From the NCBI GenBank assembly GCA_003225335.1, contig QHZE01000451.1, positions 2,612 to 66,611 of the forward strand: DNA of 64,000 nt, written 5' to 3'. Shown here piece after piece: positions 3,092-62,642 of this stretch (its first letter is position 1; each line of letters opens with the position of its first letter). Both the position numbers and the translations under genes were made by a program. Origin of the DNA: Acidobacteriota bacterium (GTDB lineage: Bacteria > Acidobacteriota > UBA6911). Under the pieces are notes generated by a model. It saw only the letters and a program-made list of their open reading frames with translations. It was not told the DNA's origin and made no database searches.

Positions 3092-3140
3092 GACGCAAAA
3101 GACGCGAAGACGCGAAGAACCGCAAAGAAACGAAGAATCG
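3079..3140. repeat. family A element (GACGCGAAGA core), half copy
   Basis: ..TTCACCGCTAAGACGCAAAAGACGCGAAGACGCGAAGAACCGCAAAGAAACGAAGAATCG. Confidence 0.7.
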
Positions 3141-3156: not shown

Positions 3157-4749
3157 ATGATCAGACGCATTTTGCGGCTTGTCGCTGTGATTGCAGTGGC
3201 CGCCTTCGGGGCGCCGGCGCAGCCCCGGCAGAGTGATGCGAGGCTCGGGGCGCTGAAAGACGAGGCGGCGCAGGAAGTCGATCGGATGAAGGAATTCACC
3301 CAACAGGCCGTGGACCAGATCTTCAGCTTTGGCGAGCTCGGGTTCCAGGAATTTGAAACTTCACGTTATTGCATCAACATCCTGAAGAAGAACGGGTTCC
3401 GCGTGGAGGAGGGAATATCCGGCATGCCCACCGCGTGGATGGCGACCTGGGGATCGGGCAAGCCCGTCATCGCCCTGGGTTCCGACATCGACGGCATTCC
3501 GCAGGCTTCCCAGAAACCCGGCGTCTCTTACCGCGCGCCCCTTCTCCCCGGGGCGCCGGGCCATGGCGAAGGGCACAACAGCGGTCAAGCGGTCAACATT
3601 ACCGCCGCGCTGGTCGTGAAAAAGCTGATGGAGCGGGAGCGCTTGCCGGGGACCCTGAAGCTATGGCCGGGCGTGGCGGAAGAGCAGCTGGGCGCCAAAG
3701 CGTATTACGTTCGAGACGGATATTTCAAAGACGTGGATGCCGTGATCTTCTCCCATGTGAGCGACAACCTGAGCACCTCCTACGGTTCTGCGAACGGCAC
3801 CGGTCTGGTCTCGGTGCAGTACTCGTTTCAAGGAGAGAGCGCTCATGCCGCAGGAGCGCCCTGGAGAGCCCGCAGCGCTCTGGACGCCGTCGAGCTGATG
3901 GACATCGGCTGGAACTTCAAGCGCGAGCATCTGCGGCTGCAGCAACGCTCGCACTATGTCATCACAAACGGCGGCGATCAACCCAACGTCGTCCCGCCCA
4001 ACGCGTCGGTGTGGTATTTCTTCCGCGAGACGGAGTACCCGCGCATTCGAGAGATGTTTGAAATGGGCAATACCATCGCACAGGCGGCCGCAATGATGAC
4101 GGGCACCCAGGTCTCCTGGCGTCTCCTGGGCTCCGCCTGGCCGGCCCACTTCAACAAGGTCGTCGCCGAAACCATGGACGCGAACATCAAGAAGGCGGGT
4201 CTTCCGGTCTGGAGCGAAGCCGACCAGACCCTGGCGAAGGCGGTGCAGAGAGAGGTGAAGTCTGAAGAAAAGGGGCTCAGCAGCGAGCTTGCGCCCCTTG
4301 AAGCGCCCGTTAAAGACGAGGACAAACGAGGAGGCGGCTCGGACGATATCGGGGATGTGTCCTGGAACGTCCCCACGGTCACGCTGCGCTACCCATCCAA
4401 TATTCCCGGACTTCCCGGGCACAACTGGATCAACGCCGTGTCCATGGCGACGCCCATCGCCCACAAGGGAGCCACGGCGGGAGCGAAAGTGGCGGCGATG
4501 ACTGTGCTCGATCTCTTGATCCGGCAGGACCTCGTGCAGCAAGCCTGGGAGTATTTCCGGAATGTTCAGACCAAGGATGGGAAATACATTCCTTTCGTGA
4601 GTCCCGAGGACAAGCCGGCGATCGAGCTAAATAGGACGATCATGGAGCGCTACCGCCCGGAGATGCGGAAATACTATTACGATCCATCCCGGTACAAGAC
4701 GTATCTGGAGCAGCTGGGAATTTCCTACCCCACCGTACGCAAGGAGTAG
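3157..4749 (+). CDS. M20-family amidohydrolase/peptidase (AbgB/aminoacylase-like), secreted
   Basis: The ORF call at 2977 runs through a family-A repeat. The true start is ATG 3157, behind RBS AGGAGG, followed by the signal peptide MIRRILRLVAVIAVAAFGAPAQ. M20D-type motifs are present (GSDIDGIPQ.., HGEGHN). Confidence 0.75.
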   Translation: MIRRILRLVAVIAVAAFGAPAQPRQSDARLGALKDEAAQEVDRMKEFTQQAVDQIFSFGELGFQEFETSRYCINILKKNGFRVEEGISGMPTAWMATWGSGKPVIALGSDIDGIPQASQKPGVSYRAPLLPGAPGHGEGHNSGQAVNITAALVVKKLMERERLPGTLKLWPGVAEEQLGAKAYYVRDGYFKDVDAVIFSHVSDNLSTSYGSANGTGLVSVQYSFQGESAHAAGAPWRARSALDAVELMDIGWNFKREHLRLQQRSHYVITNGGDQPNVVPPNASVWYFFRETEYPRIREMFEMGNTIAQAAAMMTGTQVSWRLLGSAWPAHFNKVVAETMDANIKKAGLPVWSEADQTLAKAVQREVKSEEKGLSSELAPLEAPVKDEDKRGGGSDDIGDVSWNVPTVTLRYPSNIPGLPGHNWINAVSMATPIAHKGATAGAKVAAMTVLDLLIRQDLVQQAWEYFRNVQTKDGKYIPFVSPEDKPAIELNRTIMERYRPEMRKYYYDPSRYKTYLEQLGISYPTVRKE

Positions 4750-4758
4750 CCCGCCGTT

Positions 4759-4812
4759 TAGCCACAGAGCCACGGAGACACAGAATCTCTGTGTCTCCGT
4801 GGCTCTGTGGCT
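4759..4812. repeat. family C perfect palindrome (AGCCACAGAGCCACGGAGACACAGA / TCTGTGTCTCCGTGGCTCTGTGGCT)
   Basis: 25 nt perfect arms around ATCTC. Related copies at 24673-24735, 40838-40896 and 41020-41040. Confidence 0.8.
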
Positions 4813-4900
4813 AAACATTGGATTTGCCTCGATCCACTAGGCCCTCTTGGTGGACACAAAGTTCACAAAATGGTCAAATTTTTGCGTCATCGCGGGCGCA

Positions 4901-4962
4901 GGTTCGGAGTTCAGCCTTCAGGCTGCACTGGCGCCGGGCAGGCTAAAGCCTGAACTCCAAAC
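4901..4962. repeat. family B element
   Basis: GGTTCGGAGTTCAGCCTTCAGGCTGCACTGGCGCCGGGCAGGCTAAAGCCTGAACTCCAAAC. Confidence 0.75.
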
Positions 4963-18246: not shown

Positions 18247-18356
18247 ATTCTTTGCTCTCCGGCGCCAAATTCTTTGCGACTCTTTGCGTCTTCGCGTCTC
18301 TGTGGTGAAGCAGGTTACGCCGCATTCACCGCCAAGACGCAAAGACGCGAAGAATC
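18247..18356. repeat. family A palindromic element, full copy
   Basis: TTCTTTGCGACTCTTTGCGTCTTCGCGTCTCTGTGGTGAAG ... TTCACCGCCAAGACGCAAAGACGCGAAGAATC. Confidence 0.8.
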
Positions 18357-20358: not shown

Positions 20359-20375
20359 ATCCCGAGTGCACATCT

Positions 20376-20473
20376 TCTTAGCGATTCTTCGCGTCTTTGC
20401 GTCTTAGCGGTAACAATGGCGTAACCGCTTTCACCACAAAGACGCGAAGACGCAAAGAACTGCAAAGAATTCT
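20376..20473. repeat. family A palindromic element, full copy
   Basis: TTCTTCGCGTCTTTGCGTCTTAGCGGTAAC..GTAACCGCTTTCACCACAAAGACGCGAAGACGCAAAGAACTGCAAAGAA. Confidence 0.8.
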
Positions 20474-24549: not shown

Positions 24550-24672
24550 GTTTGCGCCCCCGCAAGGAGATTTTCCGCTCACGCCCAGACCGAAGGTCAC
24601 ACAAAAATCGGTTAATGTGTCACAAGCCGTGAAAAAATTCCGTCCGTCCGCTGCTCACGCTCGCGGCGCTTC

Positions 24673-24785
24673 TTCTCTGTGTCTCCGTGTCTCTGTGGCC
24701 AATGACGGTTTTTGGCCACAGAGACACGGAGAAAAAAACTGGCCACGAATTTCACGATTATACGATAACCAGTCGCGAAATCATC
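24673..24785. repeat. composite family C plus family D element
   Basis: CTCTGTGTCTCCGTGTCTCTGTGGCCAATGACGGTTTTTGGCCACAGAGACACGGAGAAAAAAACTGGCCACGAATTTCACGATTATACGA. Confidence 0.7.
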
Positions 24786-28301: not shown

Positions 28302-28448
28302 GGTTTGGAATTCAGCCTTCAGCCTGCACAGAGCCGGGCAGGCTAAAGCCTGAACTCCGAACCAAAGCCCACGAGATCATTGCTCACGTTTGGAGTTCAG
28401 CCTTCAGGCTGCACGGAGCCCGGGCAGGCTAAAGCCTGAACTCCAAAC
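28302..28448. repeat. two tandem family B elements between convergent genes
   Basis: Copies at 28302-28364 and 28388-28448. Confidence 0.8.
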
Positions 28449-28455
28449 CAAAGAC

Positions 28456-29127
28456 TTATCGCTTCGCGCGCCGATAAGCCGTTGCCAGCGAATCGGCGTA
28501 CTCGTTCCAGCGATAGCCGGAGTGGGCGGCGATCCAGCACAGTTTCAGCTCGGGACGGCGCTTGAACAAGCCGTACAGTTCCTGCACCAGTTCCAGGTTC
28601 TTGATCTCGCCGCCCTTGCGCCGCCAACCGCGCGCTTCCCAACCCTGGGCCCACTTGTCGATCGTGCTCACGCACAACTGGCTATCGGTGTAAACGACGG
28701 CGGGTGTGCCCTCGGGCACGAGAGAGACACCGGCGATTAAGGCCGACAGCTCCATGCGGTTGTTCGTGGTGTGCGGCTCGTGTCCCCAGCGCTCTGCGAC
28801 GATCTGATCTTCGATCACGTAGACCGCGCCCCAGCCTCCGGGGCCCGGATTGGGATCGGCCGCACCGTCGGTGAAGACTCCAACCTTGGGGCCTGCCTTG
28901 TACTTGGCGAGCACTTCGCTGAGCGTCAGGTTTTCTTCACGCGTTGCCGCGGGTGAACGCAGGGCTTGCCGCTCGCCGGGAATGCGTGTCCTGTTGCGCT
29001 CCGTTGTACCGTTCTGCTTGTTCTTACAGCTCAGGCAGTGCTTGGGCTTCCAACCCGGGTACTTGGCGAGCGTCGCGTCCGGAACCTCGAACGTTTTCCC
29101 GCAGTCCTGGCAGGTGAAGCTCGCCAC
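28456..29127 (-). CDS. rnhA: ribonuclease H (type 1) with N-terminal Cys4 zinc-ribbon
   Basis: RNase HI motifs GVFTDGAA.., ..NNRMELSA.., ..YTDSQ.., ..HSGYRWNEYAD. The N-terminus reads CQDCGK...CLSCKNK. Confidence 0.8.
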   Translation of the reverse strand: MASFTCQDCGKTFEVPDATLAKYPGWKPKHCLSCKNKQNGTTERNRTRIPGERQALRSPAATREENLTLSEVLAKYKAGPKVGVFTDGAADPNPGPGGWGAVYVIEDQIVAERWGHEPHTTNNRMELSALIAGVSLVPEGTPAVVYTDSQLCVSTIDKWAQGWEARGWRRKGGEIKNLELVQELYGLFKRRPELKLCWIAAHSGYRWNEYADSLATAYRRAKR

Positions 29128-29212: not shown

Positions 29213-29322
29213 ATTCACCACAAAGACACGAAGACGCGAAGAATCGCAAAGGATTTCTTCGCGTCTTCGTGTTGAGATTTTTTTTGGTTGCGGCTGGGCT
29301 GCTCTGTGTTCATCGGTGGTTT
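29213..29322. repeat. family A palindrome followed by family I element (TTGGTTGCGGCTGGGCTGCTCTGTGTTCATCGGTGG)
   Basis: The same A plus I composite recurs at 62370-62642. Confidence 0.75.
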
Positions 29323-29359: not shown

Positions 29360-30655
29360 TCAGGGGCGGTTCAGGTACTTCTGGTAGAGGCGGGTGTGCC
29401 TGGTTTCCAGGCTGACGTTCTTGCCGGCAATGAACAGATTCTTGACTTGTGTACGAATCTCCAGGAGGTCGCCGTCCGTAACGGCCAAGTCAGCAACTTT
29501 TCCAGGTTCGATCTTGCCCATTCGATCCGCGACGCCCAGAATCTCGGCCGGATTCACGGTGACCGCCTTTAGAGCCTCCTCGTGAGACAGCCCGTAGGCC
29601 TGCGCAAACCCTGCTTCGTAGGGCAGGTTCCTGACGTCGGAGCTGCTCGGCGAGGTCAGGGCAAACCTGACCCCCGCTCGGACCAGATCTCTGGGAAGAG
29701 TGAACCTCGCGTCGTACGGGTCGTCCTCCCGCACAGGGAGCGCAACGATGGATTCCAGAATCACCGGGATGTTCTCCTTCTTCAGCAGATCTGCCACCCT
29801 GCTTGCCTCGCGTCCTCCCTGAAGGACCATCTTCAACTTTTCCTTTCTGGCAAAGTCGACGGCATTCTTGATGTCTCGGGCAGTGTCGGCCTGTATGAAG
29901 ACGGCCATTTTCTCCTGAACCACCGGAATCAAAGCTTCGAGCTTGCGGTCCACTGCTGTGGAGGGATTGCTGGTCCGGGCTCGGGAGTAATGGCGGGCGG
30001 CTTCCAGGAGATCGCCGATCTCCCGGACACGTCTCTCGTAATTCCGTTTCCGTTCGGAGAAAGTCTGACGGCGAGTTTCCCGCAACCCGCCCCCGGAGAC
30101 GGTTCGCTCGCTGAGGCTCGGGAACTGCATGACGAGGCCGGCCCTCTCGAGGATGGCCATTTCATTCACTGTCCAGCCGTCCAGGTGCAGCAACACCGCC
30201 TGACCGGAAAGAATCCCGCCGGCAGGCACGCTCAGACTGGCGGTGATCCCGTTTGCCCGCGCGACGGGAATATGCTCGCTGTCGGGATGGATCGCGGTGA
30301 AGGCCAGCAGGTGGGGGTTGTAGTCTCCTATCTCCGAGGCGTCGTTGGTGGCAGGAACGGAGCCGATTTCGGTAAGGCCGATGTTGCTCCAGGCGTTGAT
30401 CATGCCTGGATAGACTTCCAGTCCCTGGCCGTTGATGATCTGGGCTCCCGCAGGGATCTTTACGTTGGAACCCACGGCCGCAATCTTTCCGTCGGCGATG
30501 ACCACCGTGGCTCGCGGGAGAGTTCCCGAGGAAGCCAGGGTATGCACCTGCGCGTCACGTATCGCATAGGTCGGACTCCCTGCTGTGGCCCGCAGCCCCA
30601 GGAGGGCGCAAAACAGCGCTAGCGCCGGAAGATGTTTGAGATTTCTCCTCTGCAT
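29360..30655 (-). CDS. secreted amidohydrolase-superfamily paralogue 1 (COG1228-like), metal-binding HxH degenerate
   Basis: Signal peptide. The fold is conserved with paralogue 2, but HxH is replaced by ..PGMINAWSN.. and further His ligands are missing. Confidence 0.7.
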   Translation of the reverse strand: MQRRNLKHLPALALFCALLGLRATAGSPTYAIRDAQVHTLASSGTLPRATVVIADGKIAAVGSNVKIPAGAQIINGQGLEVYPGMINAWSNIGLTEIGSVPATNDASEIGDYNPHLLAFTAIHPDSEHIPVARANGITASLSVPAGGILSGQAVLLHLDGWTVNEMAILERAGLVMQFPSLSERTVSGGGLRETRRQTFSERKRNYERRVREIGDLLEAARHYSRARTSNPSTAVDRKLEALIPVVQEKMAVFIQADTARDIKNAVDFARKEKLKMVLQGGREASRVADLLKKENIPVILESIVALPVREDDPYDARFTLPRDLVRAGVRFALTSPSSSDVRNLPYEAGFAQAYGLSHEEALKAVTVNPAEILGVADRMGKIEPGKVADLAVTDGDLLEIRTQVKNLFIAGKNVSLETRHTRLYQKYLNRP

Positions 30656-30734
30656 GTTCGTTCCCCTCGGTGTCCAACTCAGGTTCGGAGTTCCGGCTTT
30701 AGCCTGCCCTCCCGTACCCTGACGGCAGCCTAAC

Positions 30735-30790
30735 TACATGATTTCATAAATACGGTAACGTCTTCCGCCCCAGCGGGGCGAAAAGAAATT
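30735..30790. repeat. family H element (TACATGATTTCATAAATACGGTAACG..CGCCCCAGCGGGGCGAAA)
   Basis: Second copy at 49503-49570. Confidence 0.6.
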
Positions 30791-31008
30791 AGCCGGGGGT
30801 GAGCGAAGCGAACCCCCGGGGTAGAAGAGGGACAACGATACGCACCCCGGCAGGGGTTGCAGGACCTCCCCGCCCTTGCCGGGGCGCGTTGGTCACGTAG
30901 GCAAGGGTTCCAGTGGTTCGCAAAAAGCGCTCACCCCTGGCTGAGTTCCTCCCGCTCCGGAGCGAAAGACCCTTTCGAGAAGAACGGCTCTTGTCTCAAT
31001 CGCAGCTC

Positions 31009-32436
31009 TCAGGGTTCATCGGGCGGTTCGACCGCAGTCGTTGTCACATCGGTGGGAGGTGTCCGCCGTCCCTCGGGGCGCCGCTCGCGTTCCCGCTCCT
31101 TTTTATCCTTTTCTTTCAGCGAGGCTCTTTCCTTCTCCAGGCGTTCCCGCATTTCCAGATCCTTCTGAATGTCGAAATAGACCTGGCCGTCGATGAAGAC
31201 CTTCTGAGCTACCGCGTAGACGCTCAGCGGGTGGCGGTTGTAGATGACCAGGTCGGCATCCTTGCCGGGCTCGATCGAGCCTACGCGATTGTCGATACGC
31301 AGTTGTTTCGCCGGATTCAGCGTGACCAGGGCCAGGGCTTCCTGCTCGCTGAGCCCCCCGTATTTCATGCATTTGGCCGCTTCCTGATTCAGATGCCGGG
31401 CTTCTTCCGCGCTGTCGGAATTTATGGAAACAACGACGCCTTTGCGCGTCATGATCGCGGCGTTGTAAGGAATCGCGTCATACGCCTCGACTTTGTAAGC
31501 CCACCAGTCCGAGAAAGTTGAGGCTCCGGCGCCATGCTCGGCGATCTCCTTCGCGACTTTGTAACCCTCGAGGACGTGCTGGAACGTGGCGATCTTGAAC
31601 CCGAACTCATCGGCCACCCGAAGAAGCATCAAGATCTCGTCGGCGCGGTAGCAATGCGCGTGGACCAATCGCTCCCCGCGCAAAATCTCTGCGAGAGTTT
31701 CCAGCTTCAAATCTTTTGCGGGCGGTATGGCTGGCTTGTCTGCCGCCAAGGCTCGTTTCTTGTACTCGTCCCACTTCTCGGTGTAGGTGCGGGCTTCAAT
31801 CAAGGCGTCGCGGATCACGTCTTCAACGCCCATTCGTGTCTGGGGGTAGCGGGCCGGGGAAGTGCCGGGCGTTGCCCGCGAGCGCTTGGGATTCTCACCC
31901 AGGGCAAACTTGATGCCCGGCTTCGCCCCTTCGAAAATCAAACCCTTTGCGTCCTTGCCCCACCGGAGCTTTATGACCTGATTGCGGCCTCCGATCGGAT
32001 TGGCGCTGCCGTGGAGGATGTTGGCCGTCGTAACGCCCCCGGCCAAGCTCCGGTAGATGTTGATATCTTCGGGATCAATCACGTCTTCAATCCCGACCAT
32101 GGCGGTGACCGCCAGTGTGCCTTCATTGACCCCGCCGCTGATGGCGATGTGGGAGTGACAATCGATGATTCCCGGCATGACATACTGGCCCTTCGCGTCG
32201 ATCACCGTGGCGCCTTCGGGCGTAGCAACTTGGGGGCCGATCTCGGCGATTTTGCCCTCGCGAATGAGAACGGACCCTTTGGGAAGGGCAGGGCGCGAGA
32301 CAGGAAGAATGAAGGCGTCTTTTATGATTAAGACGCCGGACGCGGGAGATCGCTGCGGTTCAGAGGCCAGAAGCCAAGCCGCGCACGACGCGAGAACAAT
32401 CGTCGCCATCAAAGCAGTCTTTTTCATACAAATCAT
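31009..32436 (-). CDS. secreted amidohydrolase-superfamily paralogue 2 (COG1228-like), catalytic motifs intact
   Basis: Signal peptide. PGIIDCHSHI (HxH). Downstream His and Asp ligands (..HAHCY.., ..SINSDS..). Lys/Glu-rich C-terminal tail. Confidence 0.8.
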   Translation of the reverse strand: MICMKKTALMATIVLASCAAWLLASEPQRSPASGVLIIKDAFILPVSRPALPKGSVLIREGKIAEIGPQVATPEGATVIDAKGQYVMPGIIDCHSHIAISGGVNEGTLAVTAMVGIEDVIDPEDINIYRSLAGGVTTANILHGSANPIGGRNQVIKLRWGKDAKGLIFEGAKPGIKFALGENPKRSRATPGTSPARYPQTRMGVEDVIRDALIEARTYTEKWDEYKKRALAADKPAIPPAKDLKLETLAEILRGERLVHAHCYRADEILMLLRVADEFGFKIATFQHVLEGYKVAKEIAEHGAGASTFSDWWAYKVEAYDAIPYNAAIMTRKGVVVSINSDSAEEARHLNQEAAKCMKYGGLSEQEALALVTLNPAKQLRIDNRVGSIEPGKDADLVIYNRHPLSVYAVAQKVFIDGQVYFDIQKDLEMRERLEKERASLKEKDKKERERERRPEGRRTPPTDVTTTAVEPPDEP

Positions 32437-32511
32437 CCCCGCCTATTGCGGCTTGCGGATTGAAAAACGCCGGAAGAATTGGGGATTCGCGACTGTGGAT
32501 TGAGAAAACCT

Positions 32512-32563
32512 AGTCGATTTCAAATCCCGATTGTCAAATCCGCAATCCGCAATCCGCAATCGG
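32512..32563. repeat. family E element
   Basis: TTTCAAATCCCGATTGTCAAATCCGCAATCCGCAATCCGCAATCGG. Confidence 0.7.
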
Positions 32564-32564
32564 T

Positions 32565-33941
32565 TCACTCCGGTTCGGGTTCGGTGATGTCATACTTCTT
32601 GCCGTCAATGAACACGTACTTTACGCGGGTGCGGCTGTCGAAAATATCTCCTGTGGCTATGGTCAGATTAGCGGTCTTGCCCTTCTCGATGCTCCCTAAC
32701 TTGCCAGCTACGCCGAAAATCTCCGCCGCCGTCAGCGTTAAAGCCCGCATCGCGATGTCCTTGGGCAGTCCCGCTTCGACGCTCCGGGCGATGTTCCGCA
32801 TGAAGTCACGCGGGCTCGAGATGTCGCCGGATTGAAAGGCGAACTGCACGCCCGCTTTAGCCAGAGCCGCCGCGTTGACCGGAGCCTCCACTCGTCTGCG
32901 GAGGACCGGAAGCTCTTCCTCCAATTCGGGGTCGGAGTCCCGGTCTCGTTCAGGAAACTTCATGGAAAGCAACACCGGGACCCCCTTCTCTTTCAGCAAG
33001 GGCGCTATTCTTGCCGCCTCGCTCCCACCGCTCAGGATGCATTTGAGCTTGAACGATTGGGCCAGTTCCATTGCGCGCTGTATTTGCGCGGGTGTGTCTC
33101 CGGGCACAACGGCGGGCAGTTCGCGCTTGAGCACGGGGATCAGAGCTTGAAGAGAATGGTTGTAATCCGGGCGCACGACACCTGTGTGGACGTTGTAGAT
33201 GTTCCATGCGACGTCGTAACGCTCCGCGTCCAGGAAAGTTTGCTTGACGAAAGCGACGACTCCCATCAAAGAGCTCGGGTAACCGCCGCCGAAGCCCCCG
33301 GCGCTTTGCAAACTGATATGCATGGCCACCGGAGTTTTTACGACCATGGCTCCCACGGAGGCTCCTGAAAGATTCACCAGGGAGCTCTGGCCCTCGAAGA
33401 TTCCTGTTCGCGGCGCTACGAGGGCGGTGGTGATTCCCACGGCGCGCGCGCTTTCAATTTTCCTGTTTGTCGGGTTGATCAGGTCGGCTGCCTGCACATG
33501 AGAATTCAGCAATGGCCTCTCGGCTGCCGGCGGCGCAGGGGCCTGCTGGGTGGGTTGTGCGGGTGCGGCTGGCGGACCCGGACGAGCGGAAGGCGGCCCC
33601 GGCGCCTGGGGAGCGCGCGGCTCCTCAAGGCCGGCGTCACAGAGCCCGTCGATCAGGCCTGGATACACCGTGAGTCCCGTTCCGTCGAGGGTCCTGGCGT
33701 CTGGAGGGATAGGGACGTTGGCGCCCACGGCCTCGATGATTCCGTTGCGCAAGATTACCGTCCCCTTCTCCAACGGCGCCCCGGACACAGGAAAGATCCG
33801 GGCGCCGCTGATGGCGAAGACGGCCGGCTCCTCCGTTCGCGCGGAGACGGCGGCGAAAAGGGCCAGGAGAACAAGAATCAGGGCGATCCGGGAGCGAAGA
33901 AACAATTTTCTGAAAGAGAGAAACCTCATTCGGAATCCCAC
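32565..33941 (-). CDS. secreted amidohydrolase-superfamily paralogue 3 (COG1228-like), HxH degenerate, Pro/Ala-rich insert
   Basis: Signal peptide. ..PGLIDGLCDAG.. replaces HxH. A 40 aa PAPQ-rich insert. Confidence 0.7.
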   Translation of the reverse strand: MGFRMRFLSFRKLFLRSRIALILVLLALFAAVSARTEEPAVFAISGARIFPVSGAPLEKGTVILRNGIIEAVGANVPIPPDARTLDGTGLTVYPGLIDGLCDAGLEEPRAPQAPGPPSARPGPPAAPAQPTQQAPAPPAAERPLLNSHVQAADLINPTNRKIESARAVGITTALVAPRTGIFEGQSSLVNLSGASVGAMVVKTPVAMHISLQSAGGFGGGYPSSLMGVVAFVKQTFLDAERYDVAWNIYNVHTGVVRPDYNHSLQALIPVLKRELPAVVPGDTPAQIQRAMELAQSFKLKCILSGGSEAARIAPLLKEKGVPVLLSMKFPERDRDSDPELEEELPVLRRRVEAPVNAAALAKAGVQFAFQSGDISSPRDFMRNIARSVEAGLPKDIAMRALTLTAAEIFGVAGKLGSIEKGKTANLTIATGDIFDSRTRVKYVFIDGKKYDITEPEPE

Positions 33942-34010
33942 CCTCGATAGCTCTGGAAGGAGCGCATCTTAAACCAATCCGTCCCCTATTCCCATAAAAA
34001 AGCTGGAAAC

Positions 34011-34079
34011 CGCATTCACCACGAAGACGCGAAGACACGGAGAAAGTCTTCTTCGCGCCTTCGCGTCTTCGTGGTGAAA
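34011..34079. repeat. family A palindromic element, full copy
   Basis: CATTCACCACGAAGACGCGAAGACACGGAGAAAGTCTTCTTCGCGCCTTCGCGTCTTCGTGGTGAAAAG. Confidence 0.8.
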
Positions 34080-34082
34080 AGA

Positions 34083-34847
34083 CTACCTTCTGGACTGCCT
34101 CAAGAGCACATAGACCGCGCCGACGCCGCCGTCTCTGGCCGGAGCGGAGGCGTAAGCCACGACGTAGCGAGACATCCTCCGAGTAGCCAGCCAGCGCTGC
34201 AGGCTGTCCTTGAGTATCCCTCTGCCCGTAGGTGAGTTGATGCCTCTGCCGTGAATGACCTTGACGCAGCAAGAACGGAAGCGGGACATCCCGCGGAGGA
34301 AATCTTCCACGACTCTTCTGGCTTCCGCGCGAGTGAACCCGTGCAGATCCACCTGGCCCTGGATCGAATACAGGCCCTCCCGCAAACGCGGAAGGTAGCG
34401 CTTTCCGGCAACCCCTACCCAGCCCTCGATGTATTCCGGATGGTCTACGATCGGTGCCTCACGATCTCCCATCGCCGCCCCCATTAACTTGTGGTCCTCC
34501 AGGTCCCCGTTCGATGCGGGCCGGGGTGACGGCGGCAGGGAAGGCACGGGATCATGACGCCATGTCACCCGCACCACATCGCGCATCGCGCTTTCAAATA
34601 ACTCTTCTTCATTTCCGTCCTCAGCCGCGGCCAGCGAGCCGGTCTGGGCCTCGAGCGGTCGAGGCAGGAGCTGAAAACCTGCCTTGCTCAGAATCTTGTC
34701 CAAAGCTGCAAATGGCCTCTGCGCCGTATGCCTTGAGGATCGCGTGCGGCGATGCGTGGGTTTTGAATCGAACGTACGGCGCGACGTCATCACGAATGAC
34801 GATTGAACGAATGACGATTGAAGGATATGGCACGGCTCACTTGGCAA
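34083..34847 (-). CDS. Smr-domain protein
   Basis: The C-terminal motif ..VDLHGFTRAEA...VIHGRG..LK..L..WL. is the Smr (MutS2 C-terminal-like) signature. The N-terminal start is uncertain. Confidence 0.6.
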   Translation of the reverse strand: MPSEPCHILQSSFVQSSFVMTSRRTFDSKPTHRRTRSSRHTAQRPFAALDKILSKAGFQLLPRPLEAQTGSLAAAEDGNEEELFESAMRDVVRVTWRHDPVPSLPPSPRPASNGDLEDHKLMGAAMGDREAPIVDHPEYIEGWVGVAGKRYLPRLREGLYSIQGQVDLHGFTRAEARRVVEDFLRGMSRFRSCCVKVIHGRGINSPTGRGILKDSLQRWLATRRMSRYVVAYASAPARDGGVGAVYVLLRQSRR

Positions 34848-34895: not shown

Positions 34896-36005
34896 TTACT
34901 GTATGATGTAGTCCCGTGTAACCAGGTCCCAGTATGTTTCGTTCCTTCCTGCTGCCTCATTGGCCAGAAACGTGTTAAGGGACTGCATTACGGTTGTCAT
35001 GTAAGAACCCGGAACCTGGGCCGGATGAGCCTGCCACATGTTGGCGTAAGACCGGATGATGTAACTGTCCTGTGCCAGGGGAAGCACACGGAGATTGCCG
35101 AGGTACGAATGCCAGCGTTCGGTCCTGAACAGGTAGAACTCCACGTTCGAAGCATAAAAGCATTTCACTTCGAGACCTCTCGAGCGAAGCTCCTGAGCCA
35201 CCTGATGGAATGCGCTCGGACCTCCGAAGTCGCCCACAACCGGAACAATCCGATTCTCTCTGTGAAGTTCCTTTACGGTGCGAAAACGATCCTCCTGCGC
35301 GAGATAGCTCAACTGGGCGCCGTTGGGATCGCGCGCTTCGAGCAGGCTCCGATAGGAAGGATGATGAGGACGGGGCGCCCGATTGTAACTGGTGAATTTA
35401 ATGTCGGGGCCGCCGTTGACAAAAGCGTAGGCTATGTACTCTACCGCCTTGAAGTCCTCGTGTGTGAGTCCGATGTTCCACGCCTGCATGGCTGCGATTG
35501 CTTCGGCAATCTTTAGAGAAATGAAGGCCGGGTCACGGGGGGCTTGGTCACTCCGGCGCAAGAGCTCGGAGATCTTTTCGTTCTTCGCGTGCGGGGCCAG
35601 CAAGCGGCCGAATAGACGTTCCAGGTATTCGTCTCGGTCCCGGCTCAGCTGAAACAGAGCCTTGAAGTAGAGGTGTTGAAGAGCATTTTGCCGGCGAATG
35701 TCGAGGATGACCGCAAGCCTTGGCCGCATCTCCGCGATGTAGGTGTAGTTCTGGTCAGGTCCCACTCCAAGATAGGCTCCACCCCGGATTGCAAGACGAT
35801 TCATGGCGGGCAACACCCGCAGATATGCGGCCTCGTTGGAAACGAAATTGTCGCTGTCAAAATAGCCTTCGGGTTCGGACAACCCTGCGATCAACTGGCC
35901 GAACTTTTCCGTCCCGATGGGCGCGTCGAGAACGCGTTCAGGCTGCCGGAGATACAGAACGCCCGAGGCTATGAAAGCCAGCAGAAACTTGGAAAGAACT
36001 CGCAT
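34896..36005 (-). CDS. secreted hypothetical protein
   Basis: Start ATG 36005 (MRVLSKFLLAFIASGVLYL signal). No recognisable family. Confidence 0.4.
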   Translation of the reverse strand: MRVLSKFLLAFIASGVLYLRQPERVLDAPIGTEKFGQLIAGLSEPEGYFDSDNFVSNEAAYLRVLPAMNRLAIRGGAYLGVGPDQNYTYIAEMRPRLAVILDIRRQNALQHLYFKALFQLSRDRDEYLERLFGRLLAPHAKNEKISELLRRSDQAPRDPAFISLKIAEAIAAMQAWNIGLTHEDFKAVEYIAYAFVNGGPDIKFTSYNRAPRPHHPSYRSLLEARDPNGAQLSYLAQEDRFRTVKELHRENRIVPVVGDFGGPSAFHQVAQELRSRGLEVKCFYASNVEFYLFRTERWHSYLGNLRVLPLAQDSYIIRSYANMWQAHPAQVPGSYMTTVMQSLNTFLANEAAGRNETYWDLVTRDYIIQ

Positions 36006-36250
36006 GGTCACGCGCTTTTCCTGCCACGATGCTGCCCTTGATGATACCACTAAGAAGGTCCGGGCACGACCAGGAGGTCTTGAAGCAGGTTCGCCACGCA
36101 GGAACCCGGTCGCAACCCAAACTATGAACGAGACCACCGATGAACACAGATAAACAGAGATAAACACAGATCTGCGTTCATCCGTGTTCGCCGGCGGTTT
36201 CATTTCGCGCAGTTTCCGCAATGCCGTCCGGGTCACGGGCGTAGCAAACC

Positions 36251-40837: not shown

Positions 40838-41040
40838 ATCACGGAGCACACGGAGAGGCACGGAGAACGTGATGCCTCTGTGAAATCTCCGTGCACTCCT
40901 TGGTCGTGAGAAAAAATGTATCGCCGGCTTCCAGCCGGCAAAGGTCGTGTTGACCCAAAAGGAGTTGTCGAGGCTCAGATGCCGGCGAGACGCCGGCGCT
41001 ACGATTTTTTCTCACGACCCTTGTCTCCGTGGTGAATAAA
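40838..41040. repeat. nested palindromic element: family C arms flanking a 118 bp hairpin-rich core (40902-41019) closed by a 16 bp stem GGTCGTGAGAAAAAAT/ATTTTTTCTCACGACC
   Basis: Internal hairpins CGCCGGCTTCCAGCCGGCAAAG and GCCGGCGAGACGCCGGCG. It lies downstream of the radical SAM gene. Confidence 0.7.
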
Positions 41041-43588: not shown

Positions 43589-43765
43589 GCATTCACCGCT
43601 GAGACGCAAAGACGAAGATGATAGTTGCCGGCGCACTCGTTCACGCCAGGTGTTATGCAGATTCCAACAGAATTAATGCCGTAGGGCCGACGGCTAAAGT
43701 TGTTTGCTCTTCGACAGAAAATTCTTTGCGATTCTTTGCGTCTTCGCGTCTTTGTGGTGAAAAGC
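43589..43765. repeat. family A element with long (about 85 nt) spacer between arms
   Basis: The left arm CATTCACCGCTGAGACGCAAAGACGAAGA spans 43589-43620. The right arm TTCTTTGCGATTCTTTGCGTCTTCGCGTCTTTGTGGTGAAAAG spans 43706-43765. Confidence 0.7.
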
Positions 43766-56524: not shown

Positions 56525-56600
56525 TTCACGACAAAGACGCGAAGACACGAAGACTCACACAGACATGATCGTGGTGGATCTTCGTGTCTTTGTGGTGAAG
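56525..56600. repeat. family A palindromic element, full copy
   Basis: TTCACGACAAAGACGCGAAGACACGAAGACTCACACAGACATGATCGTGGTGGATCTTCGTGTCTTTGTGGTGAAGG. Confidence 0.8.
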
Positions 56601-62369: not shown

Positions 62370-62642
62370 CTCACCGCAGAGGCGCGGAGAACGCGGAGGT
62401 CATCCCTCGGGGCGTCCCGCAAGGCGGGACTCAGCGTTTCTAACTCCCCGCACTCCCAGGAGAACGCACAAAAAATCCTTTGCCGGCAGGAAAGGATTTT
62501 TCTTCGCGGAATCTTCGCGCTCTTCGCGGCTTCGCGGTGAATCCTGGGCTGGACTTTCACCGCGAAGGCGCGAAGCACGCGAAGAAAACGCGAAGGACTT
62601 TAGTTTGGTTGCGGCTTTGCTGCTCTGTGTTCATCGGCGGGT
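62370..62642. repeat. composite family A-variant arms plus family I element
   Basis: TCACCGCAGAGGCGCGGAGAACGCGGAGG ... CTTCGCGCTCTTCGCGGCTTCGCGGTGAATC ... TTTCACCGCGAAGGCGCGAAGCACGCGAAGAAAACGCGAAGG, then TTTGGTTGCGGCTTTGCTGCTCTGTGTTCATCGGCGG. Confidence 0.75.

Follow-up and report, generated by a model that had tools for sequence, protein, structure and literature searches.

Results

Arrangement of the three genes

A stretch of 64,000 nucleotides (nt) from an Acidobacteriota bacterium (assembly GCA_003225335.1, contig QHZE01000451.1, positions 2,612 to 66,611 of the forward strand), which is called the window hereafter, was analysed for three tandem genes encoding proteins of the amidohydrolase type, of which only the middle one was found to retain the metal ligands of this superfamily. 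We refer to these genes as A, B and C, which correspond to paralogues 3, 2 and 1, respectively, of an earlier reading of the same DNA (hereafter, the original prediction). The three open reading frames (ORFs) lie exactly where that reading had placed them, all on the minus strand and of the sizes it had given, and are transcribed in the order A, B and C. They are listed here with their scores against the Pfam family Amidohydro_1 and with the E values of their matches to entry 3OOQ of the PDB.

32565 to 33941, minus strand: gene A, predicted exported pseudo-amidohydrolase, 458 amino acids (aa) (ORF; Pfam, 35.7 bits; 3OOQ, E = 2.5e-30)
31009 to 32436, minus strand: gene B, predicted catalytic amidohydrolase subunit, 475 aa (Pfam, 73.9 bits; 3OOQ, E = 3.4e-64)
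29360 to 30655, minus strand: gene C, predicted exported pseudo-amidohydrolase, 431 aa (Pfam, 46.4 bits; 3OOQ, E = 2.4e-38)

The sequence identity was 26% between A and B and 36% between A and C, and no fourth amidohydrolase paralogue was found within the window. A protein with 100% identity to the product of gene C occurs in an Acidobacteria metagenome-assembled genome (MAG). With respect to the translation starts, the ATG at 33929 (MRFLSF..., with GAGG upstream) is likelier for gene A than the GTG at 33941, and the ATG at 32427 (MKKTAL..., with GGCGGGGA upstream) is likelier for gene B than the ATG at 32436; the conclusions are unaffected by either choice.

Family assignment and fold

The gathering cut-off of Amidohydro_1 (PF01979), which is 25 bits, was passed by all three proteins; B covered the full length of the profile, and A and C matched chiefly its C-terminal part. 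The best PDB relative was 3OOQ for A, B and C alike, the match of B spanning its residues 36–421, and 3OOQ was also the best match in Foldseek searches with structure models, in which the TMt reached 0.87 with an A-B homologue and 0.72 with window C, the latter being a model of moderate quality with a predicted local distance difference test score (pLDDT) of 72.8. All three proteins thus belong to the amidohydrolase superfamily by Pfam score and also by fold.

An NCBIfam scan of A, B and C found no family model near its cut-off. The scores against NF051886 (cut-off, 500 bits) were 36.7, 53.2 and 37.7 bits for A, B and C, respectively, and those against the HutI model TIGR01224 (cut-off, 298 bits) were 24.9, 62.7 and 42.5 bits, which places them in neither family. 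The name ‘imidazolonepropionase-like’, assigned by the Joint Genome Institute, is a generic label. The matches of A, B and C to the PDB entries 3MTW and 3BE7 were partial. The original prediction had attributed a common COG1228-like fold to the three proteins. The shared amidohydrolase fold holds, as indicated by Pfam and 3OOQ, but the characterised dipeptidases of COG1228 are only distant relatives, and the Caulobacter Xaa-Arg/Lys dipeptidase, which had been suggested as a comparator, is too distant to inform on the substrate.

Retention of the metal ligands in B and their loss in A and C

The ligand positions were compared in a domain alignment of 49 B, 46 A and 50 C sequences together with 3OOQ, and were located on the barrel in the AlphaFold2 (AF2) model of a natural A-B fusion protein (P0241). 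The corresponding positions in the window are as follows.

32146 to 32163, minus strand: HxH motif of B (D92-C-H94-S-H96-I97), barrel strand 1 (alignment; strand from the homologue model)
31909 to 31911, minus strand: K176 of B, strand 4, candidate bridging ligand, presumably carboxylated (alignment; strand from the model)
31654 to 31656, minus strand: H261 of B, strand 5 (alignment and homologue model)
31576 to 31578, minus strand: H287 of B, strand 6 (alignment and homologue model)
31414 to 31416, minus strand: D341 of B, strand 8 (alignment and homologue model)
33627 to 33656, minus strand: degenerate HxH position of A, LIDGLCDAGL, with L100 and D102 in place of His (alignments)
30380 to 30400, minus strand: degenerate HxH position of C, INAWSNI, with W89 and N91 in place of His (alignments)

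H94, H96, H261, H287 and D341 were present in all of the 49 B domains and identical in 3OOQ, and the position of K176 was Lys in 48 of the 49 B sequences. In the P0241 model, the HxH motif of B is on strand 1, the Lys on strand 4, the other two His on strands 5 and 6 and the Asp on strand 8, and, as judged from the alignment and this model, the residues of B are the canonical ligand set of the binuclear amidohydrolase centre. By this ligand set, B is predicted to be a complete and competent enzyme, whose binuclear centre would include a carboxylated Lys.

In A and C, by contrast, the binuclear ligand set is absent, the same columns being occupied by variable, non-metal-binding residues in the 46 A and 50 C sequences (for example, L, Y or F and D, T or S in A, and G, V or A and Q, N or S in C). 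In window A, the H261 position is occupied by Pro and those of H287 and D341 by Gly, the other ligand positions of window C are without His or Asp, and the H287 column is Gly in 93% of the A and 80% of the C sequences. Completion of a metal site by the replacement residues, which would have refuted the original prediction, was checked for and not found in A or C; these residues vary even among orthologues, so that no conserved metal site can be formed from them. The same pattern was observed in fusion proteins among the best 150 representatives of the C-profile search described below, in which HHKHHD occupied the six positions in 65 of the 67 B domains and in no A or C domain. The motifs quoted in the original prediction, PGIIDCHSHI in B, PGMINAWSN in C and PGLIDGLCDAG in A, were all found, and its claim that only the middle paralogue keeps the ligands was borne out by the alignment and is not peculiar to this genome.

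Conservation of the gene order and fusion of the genes

By using a profile of C orthologues, we gathered 83 related loci, in which every amidohydrolase ORF was classified against A, B and C. The order A-B-C was kept in approximately 30 loci, usually with the genes abutting or overlapping by a few bases. Loci with three separate genes were present in Acidobacteriota (Bryobacterales, Acidoferrum, Pyrinomonadaceae, Chloracidobacterium and Luteitalea), Gemmatimonadota and Bacteroidota, and the order, in split or fused form, spans Acidobacteriota, Gemmatimonadota, Bacteroidota, Planctomycetota, Verrucomicrobiota and Armatimonadota. The MAGs that contributed related loci had been assigned to Chloracidobacterium, Gemmatimonas, Luteitalea and Chitinophaga.

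In Gemmatimonadota, Opitutaceae, Planctomycetota, Eisenbacteria and Acidobacteriota, A and B were found joined in single ORFs of 916–1204 aa, after which C came as a gene of its own. Such A-B fusions occurred in at least 11 loci, with one further case on a 6.5-Mb contig, and a database search with an A-B fusion as the query returned at least 120 clusters of approximately 870–970 aa. B-C fusions were present at two loci (L029 and L032), and all three units form a single protein of 1447 aa in Mariniblastus (L053). Furthermore, when the C alignment was used as a profile in an exhaustive search, 3692 representative clusters were obtained at E ≤ 1e-30, and the best 150 of these representatives included 82 stand-alone C proteins, 44 A-B-C chains (1129–1589 aa) and 20 B-C proteins, with the fusion order being A-B-C throughout except for one C-B-C and one B-A protein. 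The triple fusions, which came from Armatimonadota, Planctomycetota and Thermoanaerobaculia, have just ‘amidohydrolase family protein’ as their database name. The check on co-conservation that accompanied the original prediction was thus passed in its favour, with the trio being co-conserved in order across distant lineages of several phyla and its partners being fused, as A-B, B-C and A-B-C, in numerous independent lineages.

One of the B-C fusion proteins, from a Planctomycetales MAG (P0389, 1258 aa), carries an additional C-terminal domain of the Beta-lactamase family (PF00144; residues 916–1241, E = 8.7e-53) and has the NCBI name ‘serine hydrolase’. This domain, which is the sole functional hint from domain fusion, may point weakly to peptide or amide breakdown. 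Weakly related amidohydrolase-like ORFs were also observed near the trio in L043 (9351–11609, plus strand), L003 (1278–2576, minus strand) and L009 (1–2520, minus strand); that of L043, which encodes 752 aa and comes directly after C, matches the N-terminus of B with 41% identity in a stretch of 92 aa.

Evolutionary history of A and C

Several derived states are common to A and C at positions where B and 3OOQ agree, namely, the loss of G143, the loss of the E181-N182-K184 loop after strand 4, and the substitutions N146G, H287G and L131R. Because A and C share these derived deletions, the loss of the ligands would have come first and the duplication second; the simplest history is likely to be that a live enzyme was duplicated, that one copy degenerated, and that the dead copy was then duplicated into A and C. 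The median identity to the window proteins, determined over 46 loci, was highest for B (57%), followed by C (44%) and A (39%). Judged from the sequences, the dead copies evolve faster than B and yet are clearly under purifying selection. Both have conserved polar residues specific to their class, which are D105, E108, S126, R133, Y314, D315 and R342 in C and D98, Q234, D238 and R289 in A.

Relatives of the 3OOQ type are solitary genes for proteins of approximately 385 aa, with no signal peptide and no adjoining paralogue. The window proteins fall outside this stand-alone class, having N-terminal signal peptides by the heuristic described below and being arranged as a trio. The context of the stand-alone 3OOQ-type genes was also considered as a functional clue and was uninformative.

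Export signals, the loop of A and the tail of B

Signal peptides were judged by a hydrophobicity heuristic, that is, a hydrophobic h-region followed by an AxA-type site. The putative signal peptides and two further segments of the window proteins are as follows.

33840 to 33941, minus strand: putative signal peptide of A, approximately aa 1–34, ending AVSA/RTEE (read from the sequence)
32365 to 32436, minus strand: putative signal peptide of B, approximately aa 1–24 (sequence and orthologues)
30581 to 30655, minus strand: putative signal peptide of C, approximately aa 1–25, ending ATA/GS (sequence and orthologues)
33507 to 33626, minus strand: Pro/Ala-rich low-complexity loop of A, aa 106–145, directly after the former HxH strand (sequence)
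31012 to 31173, minus strand: Lys/Glu/Arg-rich C-terminal tail of B, aa 422–475 (sequence)

By this heuristic, almost all of the A, B and C orthologues that occur as separate proteins have a signal peptide, and the fusions have only one, at the N-terminus. Assignment of B as a lipoprotein, based on a lipobox-like LASC, and export of C by the twin-arginine translocation system, based on QRRNLK, were both rejected, as neither motif is conserved among the orthologues.

The Pro/Ala-rich insertion in A and the Lys/Glu-rich tail of B, which had been pointed out in the original prediction, are both present. The insertion is a class-wide feature of 14–47 aa, with a median of 37 aa; the equivalent loop is approximately 12 aa in B and 20 aa in C, and the equivalent of the A loop in the fused homologue model had a pLDDT of less than 50, being predicted to be disordered. 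In the same model, the segment homologous to the tail of B forms a long helix that follows on from the domain (P0241 residues 869–890), and the tail region sits between the B and C domains in the B-C and A-B-C fusions. As a separate observation, the end of the A loop has conserved motifs that differ by clade (seen, for example, in L005, L007, L008, L010, L011, L013, L018, L037, L046 and L051). Many Acidobacteria and Gemmatimonadota have GP[EQ]DRPxT, Pyrinomonadaceae-like loci have NSNYPAGL, and other loci have [YH]WNPQV, whereas only a remnant, ERPLL, is found at the loop end of window A.

Spacers, repeats and neighbouring genes

The genes of the trio are separated by two spacers.

32437 to 32564, no strand: A-B spacer, 128 nt, with a GCGGATT tandem repeat (sequence)
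30656 to 31008, no strand: B-C spacer, 353 nt, unusually long and strongly structured, with short genome repeats (folding and repeat search)

In the orthologous loci, A and B as well as B and C usually abut or overlap, and no such B-C spacer is present. The folding z-score of the B-C spacer was −4.46 relative to shuffled sequences. This spacer includes, at 30682–30709, a repeat of approximately 28 nt that recurs four times within the window, at further intergenic sites (28336–28363, 28422–28449, 1868–1893 and 4936–4958) with an identity of 92–96%. It also includes, at 30766–30819 on the minus strand, a sub-threshold match to Acido-Lenti-1 (22 bits versus a gathering threshold of 37), in which the GGCUAAUUU linker is kept between two GC-rich hairpins; nothing reached the gathering threshold in the Rfam scan of the whole window. 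The GCGGATT tandem repeat of the A-B spacer, at 32534–32562, has a 93% identical copy at 336–364 (also 288–306). Inside the trio, the promoter scan found no promoter-like sites, and the terminator scan found three terminator-like sites versus 6.2 expected, which is uninformative.

A palindromic intergenic repeat with the core CTTCGCGTCTTCGTG was found in 23 copies in the window, with up to two mismatches allowed, versus 0.33 expected (for example, at 3103, 18282–18352, 20387–20457, 43734–43756, 56530–56594 and 62522–62575). Hairpin copies of it bracket the trio, at 34008–34082 directly upstream of A and at 29213–29272 directly downstream of C, and it appears to be either a repetitive extragenic palindromic (REP)-like element of this genome or a family of terminator hairpins. 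Long near-perfect palindromes at 4749–4823, 20372–20471, 24660–24749 and 40909–41012 gave matches to plant and animal microRNA models on both strands, well under the gathering thresholds; an identity as microRNA precursors was rejected, and they are almost certainly hairpin repeats instead.

The neighbours of the trio in the window (Smr, RNase H, DUF7790 and a GFO/IDH/MocA oxidoreductase) are unrelated to it. Downstream, at 28456–29127 on the minus strand, lies the gene for RNase H with an N-terminal Cys-rich extension (CQDCGK...CLSC), and upstream, also on the minus strand, are those for a Smr-domain protein (34083–34847) and a DUF7790 protein (34896–36236), none of which recurs beside the trio in the other loci. 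No flanking gene is conserved, any one family being present in at most 5 of the 56 loci and those five being close relatives. The gene neighbourhood was therefore discarded as a hint to the substrate.

Discussion

The original prediction had viewed the trio as one enzyme with two non-catalytic paralogue partners. This view is supported by the ligand pattern, the co-conservation and the fusions, from which we infer the physical assembly. It is probable, in our estimation, that the three proteins are the parts of one extracytoplasmic hetero-oligomeric metallo-amidohydrolase, in which B is catalytic and A and C are dead partners. B would be the only catalytic subunit, and A and C, as descendants of one already-degenerate duplicate, would be retained by purifying selection as its obligate partners. 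The ancestor is likely to have been an enzyme of the 3OOQ type, which was stand-alone, cytoplasmic and homo-oligomeric and was then duplicated, with the dead copies coming to fill the subunit positions beside the live B. In this genome, each subunit would be exported by its own signal peptide and assembly would take place after export, and the single-chain A-B-C forms found elsewhere argue for a 1:1:1 unit. The AF2 model of P0241 had a pLDDT of 79.5 and a predicted template modelling score (pTM) of 0.81 despite a disordered linker, and this pTM lends indirect support to a fixed packing of A against B.

The role of A and C may be to give structural support, to shape or feed the active site of B, or to capture the substrate, and the disordered Pro/Ala/Gly-rich loop of A, at the mouth of the former active site of A, would be a candidate element for it. 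By analogy with the nearest characterised relatives, the substrate might tentatively be sought among small amides, for example, peptides or N-acyl amino acids. There is an even chance, in our view, that the trio represents a widespread type of cell-envelope enzyme, with an obligate 1:1:1 assembly or a single chain, two-thirds of its mass being dead and the dead parts being required for the activity or specificity of B. If so, the dead subunits could, for example, serve to capture a larger peptide-like substrate or to present it, by means of the A loop and the conserved former pockets.

Several observations weigh against a hetero-oligomeric enzyme of this composition. One locus has A-B alone, with C absent within 6 kb (L055), and two others (L050 and L052) have a live domain and a single dead domain in one protein; such lineages imply that C is not universally required. 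In this genome, the genes are separated by spacers of 128 and 353 nt, and, because the B-C spacer is long and highly structured, the expression of C may be uncoupled from that of B. The presence of a signal peptide on each subunit would make separate action possible in principle, and homo-oligomer contacts that are reflected in the alignment may have raised the pTM of P0241. In addition, residues 97–166 of C (nt ~30158–30367) had a pLDDT of only 25–45 in the monomer model. This segment is among the best-conserved parts of C, including D105, E108, G110, S126, R133, G136, P144, G147, G151 and G160, and its low pLDDT could reflect the shallow alignment of 24 sequences or a segment that becomes ordered only within the complex.

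In an alternative explanation, A, B and C would serve one extracytoplasmic process without forming a complex, with A and C being free-standing binding proteins, for example, binders of the substrate or product that reuse the old pocket, whose action precedes or follows that of B. The separate signal peptides (by the heuristic), the long spacers in this genome, the lack of C beside some A-B genes, as in L055, and the class-specific conserved residues kept in A and in C are all in line with this possibility. It is nonetheless unlikely, because fusion has occurred repeatedly, in three combinations and in the same order, because the pTM of 0.81 of the A-B fusion model argues for a fixed proximity, and because no transporter or pathway gene is co-conserved. 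Less likely again is a cascade of three enzymes, in which A, C or both are still active through a non-canonical, metal-independent or relocated site. Some members of the amidohydrolase superfamily function without metal, and C and A do have invariant polar residues that could serve such a site; however, the six canonical positions are variable within A and within C, the loop after strand 4 is deleted in both, both evolve faster than B, and no known family model exceeds its cut-off for either of them. The idea that A and C are functionless, decaying duplicates and that the tandem is a recent accident might be suggested by the loss of all the catalytic residues and the low-complexity insertion in A, but it is refuted by the conservation data and has a negligible probability: the reading frames are intact, the orthologues have 35–57% identity over several phyla with the order preserved, the C profile finds 3692 representative clusters, and the units have been fused into single long ORFs. 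We therefore retain the hetero-oligomeric enzyme, with B as its catalytic subunit, as the preferred explanation.

Thousands of such proteins in soil and aquatic phyla carry just the label ‘amidohydrolase family protein’, and automatic annotation counts three enzymes where probably only one exists. Recognition of the architecture of one live and two dead units should correct the metabolic inference for the genomes that carry it. The module also offers a natural system for the conversion of a homo-oligomer to an obligate hetero-oligomer by duplication and degeneration, in which split, double and triple fusions can be compared. For substrate searches, B would best be expressed with A and C or as a natural A-B-C fusion (for example, P0361 or P0363), which may explain why the family has remained uncharacterised.

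Comparison with known systems

No description of the module was found in the literature searched on 3OOQ, on pseudoenzyme, inactive, heteromeric or tandem amidohydrolases, or on COG1228, and a paper on Acidobacteria genomes merely notes many COG1228 genes (PMC4644332). A three-part amidohydrolase of one live and two dead units, with split and fused forms and a wide distribution, thus appears to be undescribed. What is already known is that a pseudoenzyme paralogue can partner a live enzyme and that the amidohydrolase superfamily has dead members.

The closest structure, 3OOQ, is a structural-genomics entry of unknown function for an amidohydrolase of Thermotoga maritima MSB8. It resembles B in having the equivalents of H94, H96, H261, H287 and D341 and the GENPK loop. 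It is, however, a protein of approximately 385 aa with no signal peptide, which forms a homo-oligomer (10 chains, listed as dihedral), whereas the window module would be exported and consist of one live and two dead units; in Thermotogota, Dictyoglomi and Caloramator, its relatives occur as lone genes that have no paralogue as a neighbour. The characterised COG1228 enzymes, which are the Xaa-Arg/Lys carboxypeptidases Cc2672 and Sgx9260b, the prolidase Sgx9355e and HutI, belong to the same superfamily and are the nearest relatives with known substrates, but their similarity to the trio is partial and weak, and their substrates are therefore not transferable.

Among systems with dead members, the animal dihydropyrimidinase-related proteins (CRMP/DPYSL), which are of the same superfamily and appeared as weak matches of B in the PDB search, are non-catalytic paralogues without metal ligands that oligomerise with each other. 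Unlike the trio, they are eukaryotic, cytosolic adaptors in signalling and the cytoskeleton, and are not known to have a live enzyme subunit as a partner or to share an operon with one. Inactive dihydroorotase-like units, such as Pseudomonas PyrC', which assembles with aspartate transcarbamoylase, and the dihydroorotase-like domain of yeast Ura2, are pseudoenzymes of the superfamily that act as structural partners of an active enzyme. These units are paired with a non-homologous enzyme from their own pathway, whereas the dead units in the trio would be paired with a paralogue of the same fold, and the trio has two distinct dead copies. In the M16 pairs, namely, the alpha and beta subunits of the mitochondrial processing peptidase and the bacterial M16B heterodimers, adjacent or fused paralogues include one with the metal motif and a dead one that is needed for substrate binding. 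The M16 pairs differ from the trio in having an unrelated fold and chemistry and two partners, not three. If the dead units are indeed required for the activity or specificity of B, the trio would represent a bacterial counterpart, within a single fold, of the alpha/beta processing-peptidase principle, extended to three members.

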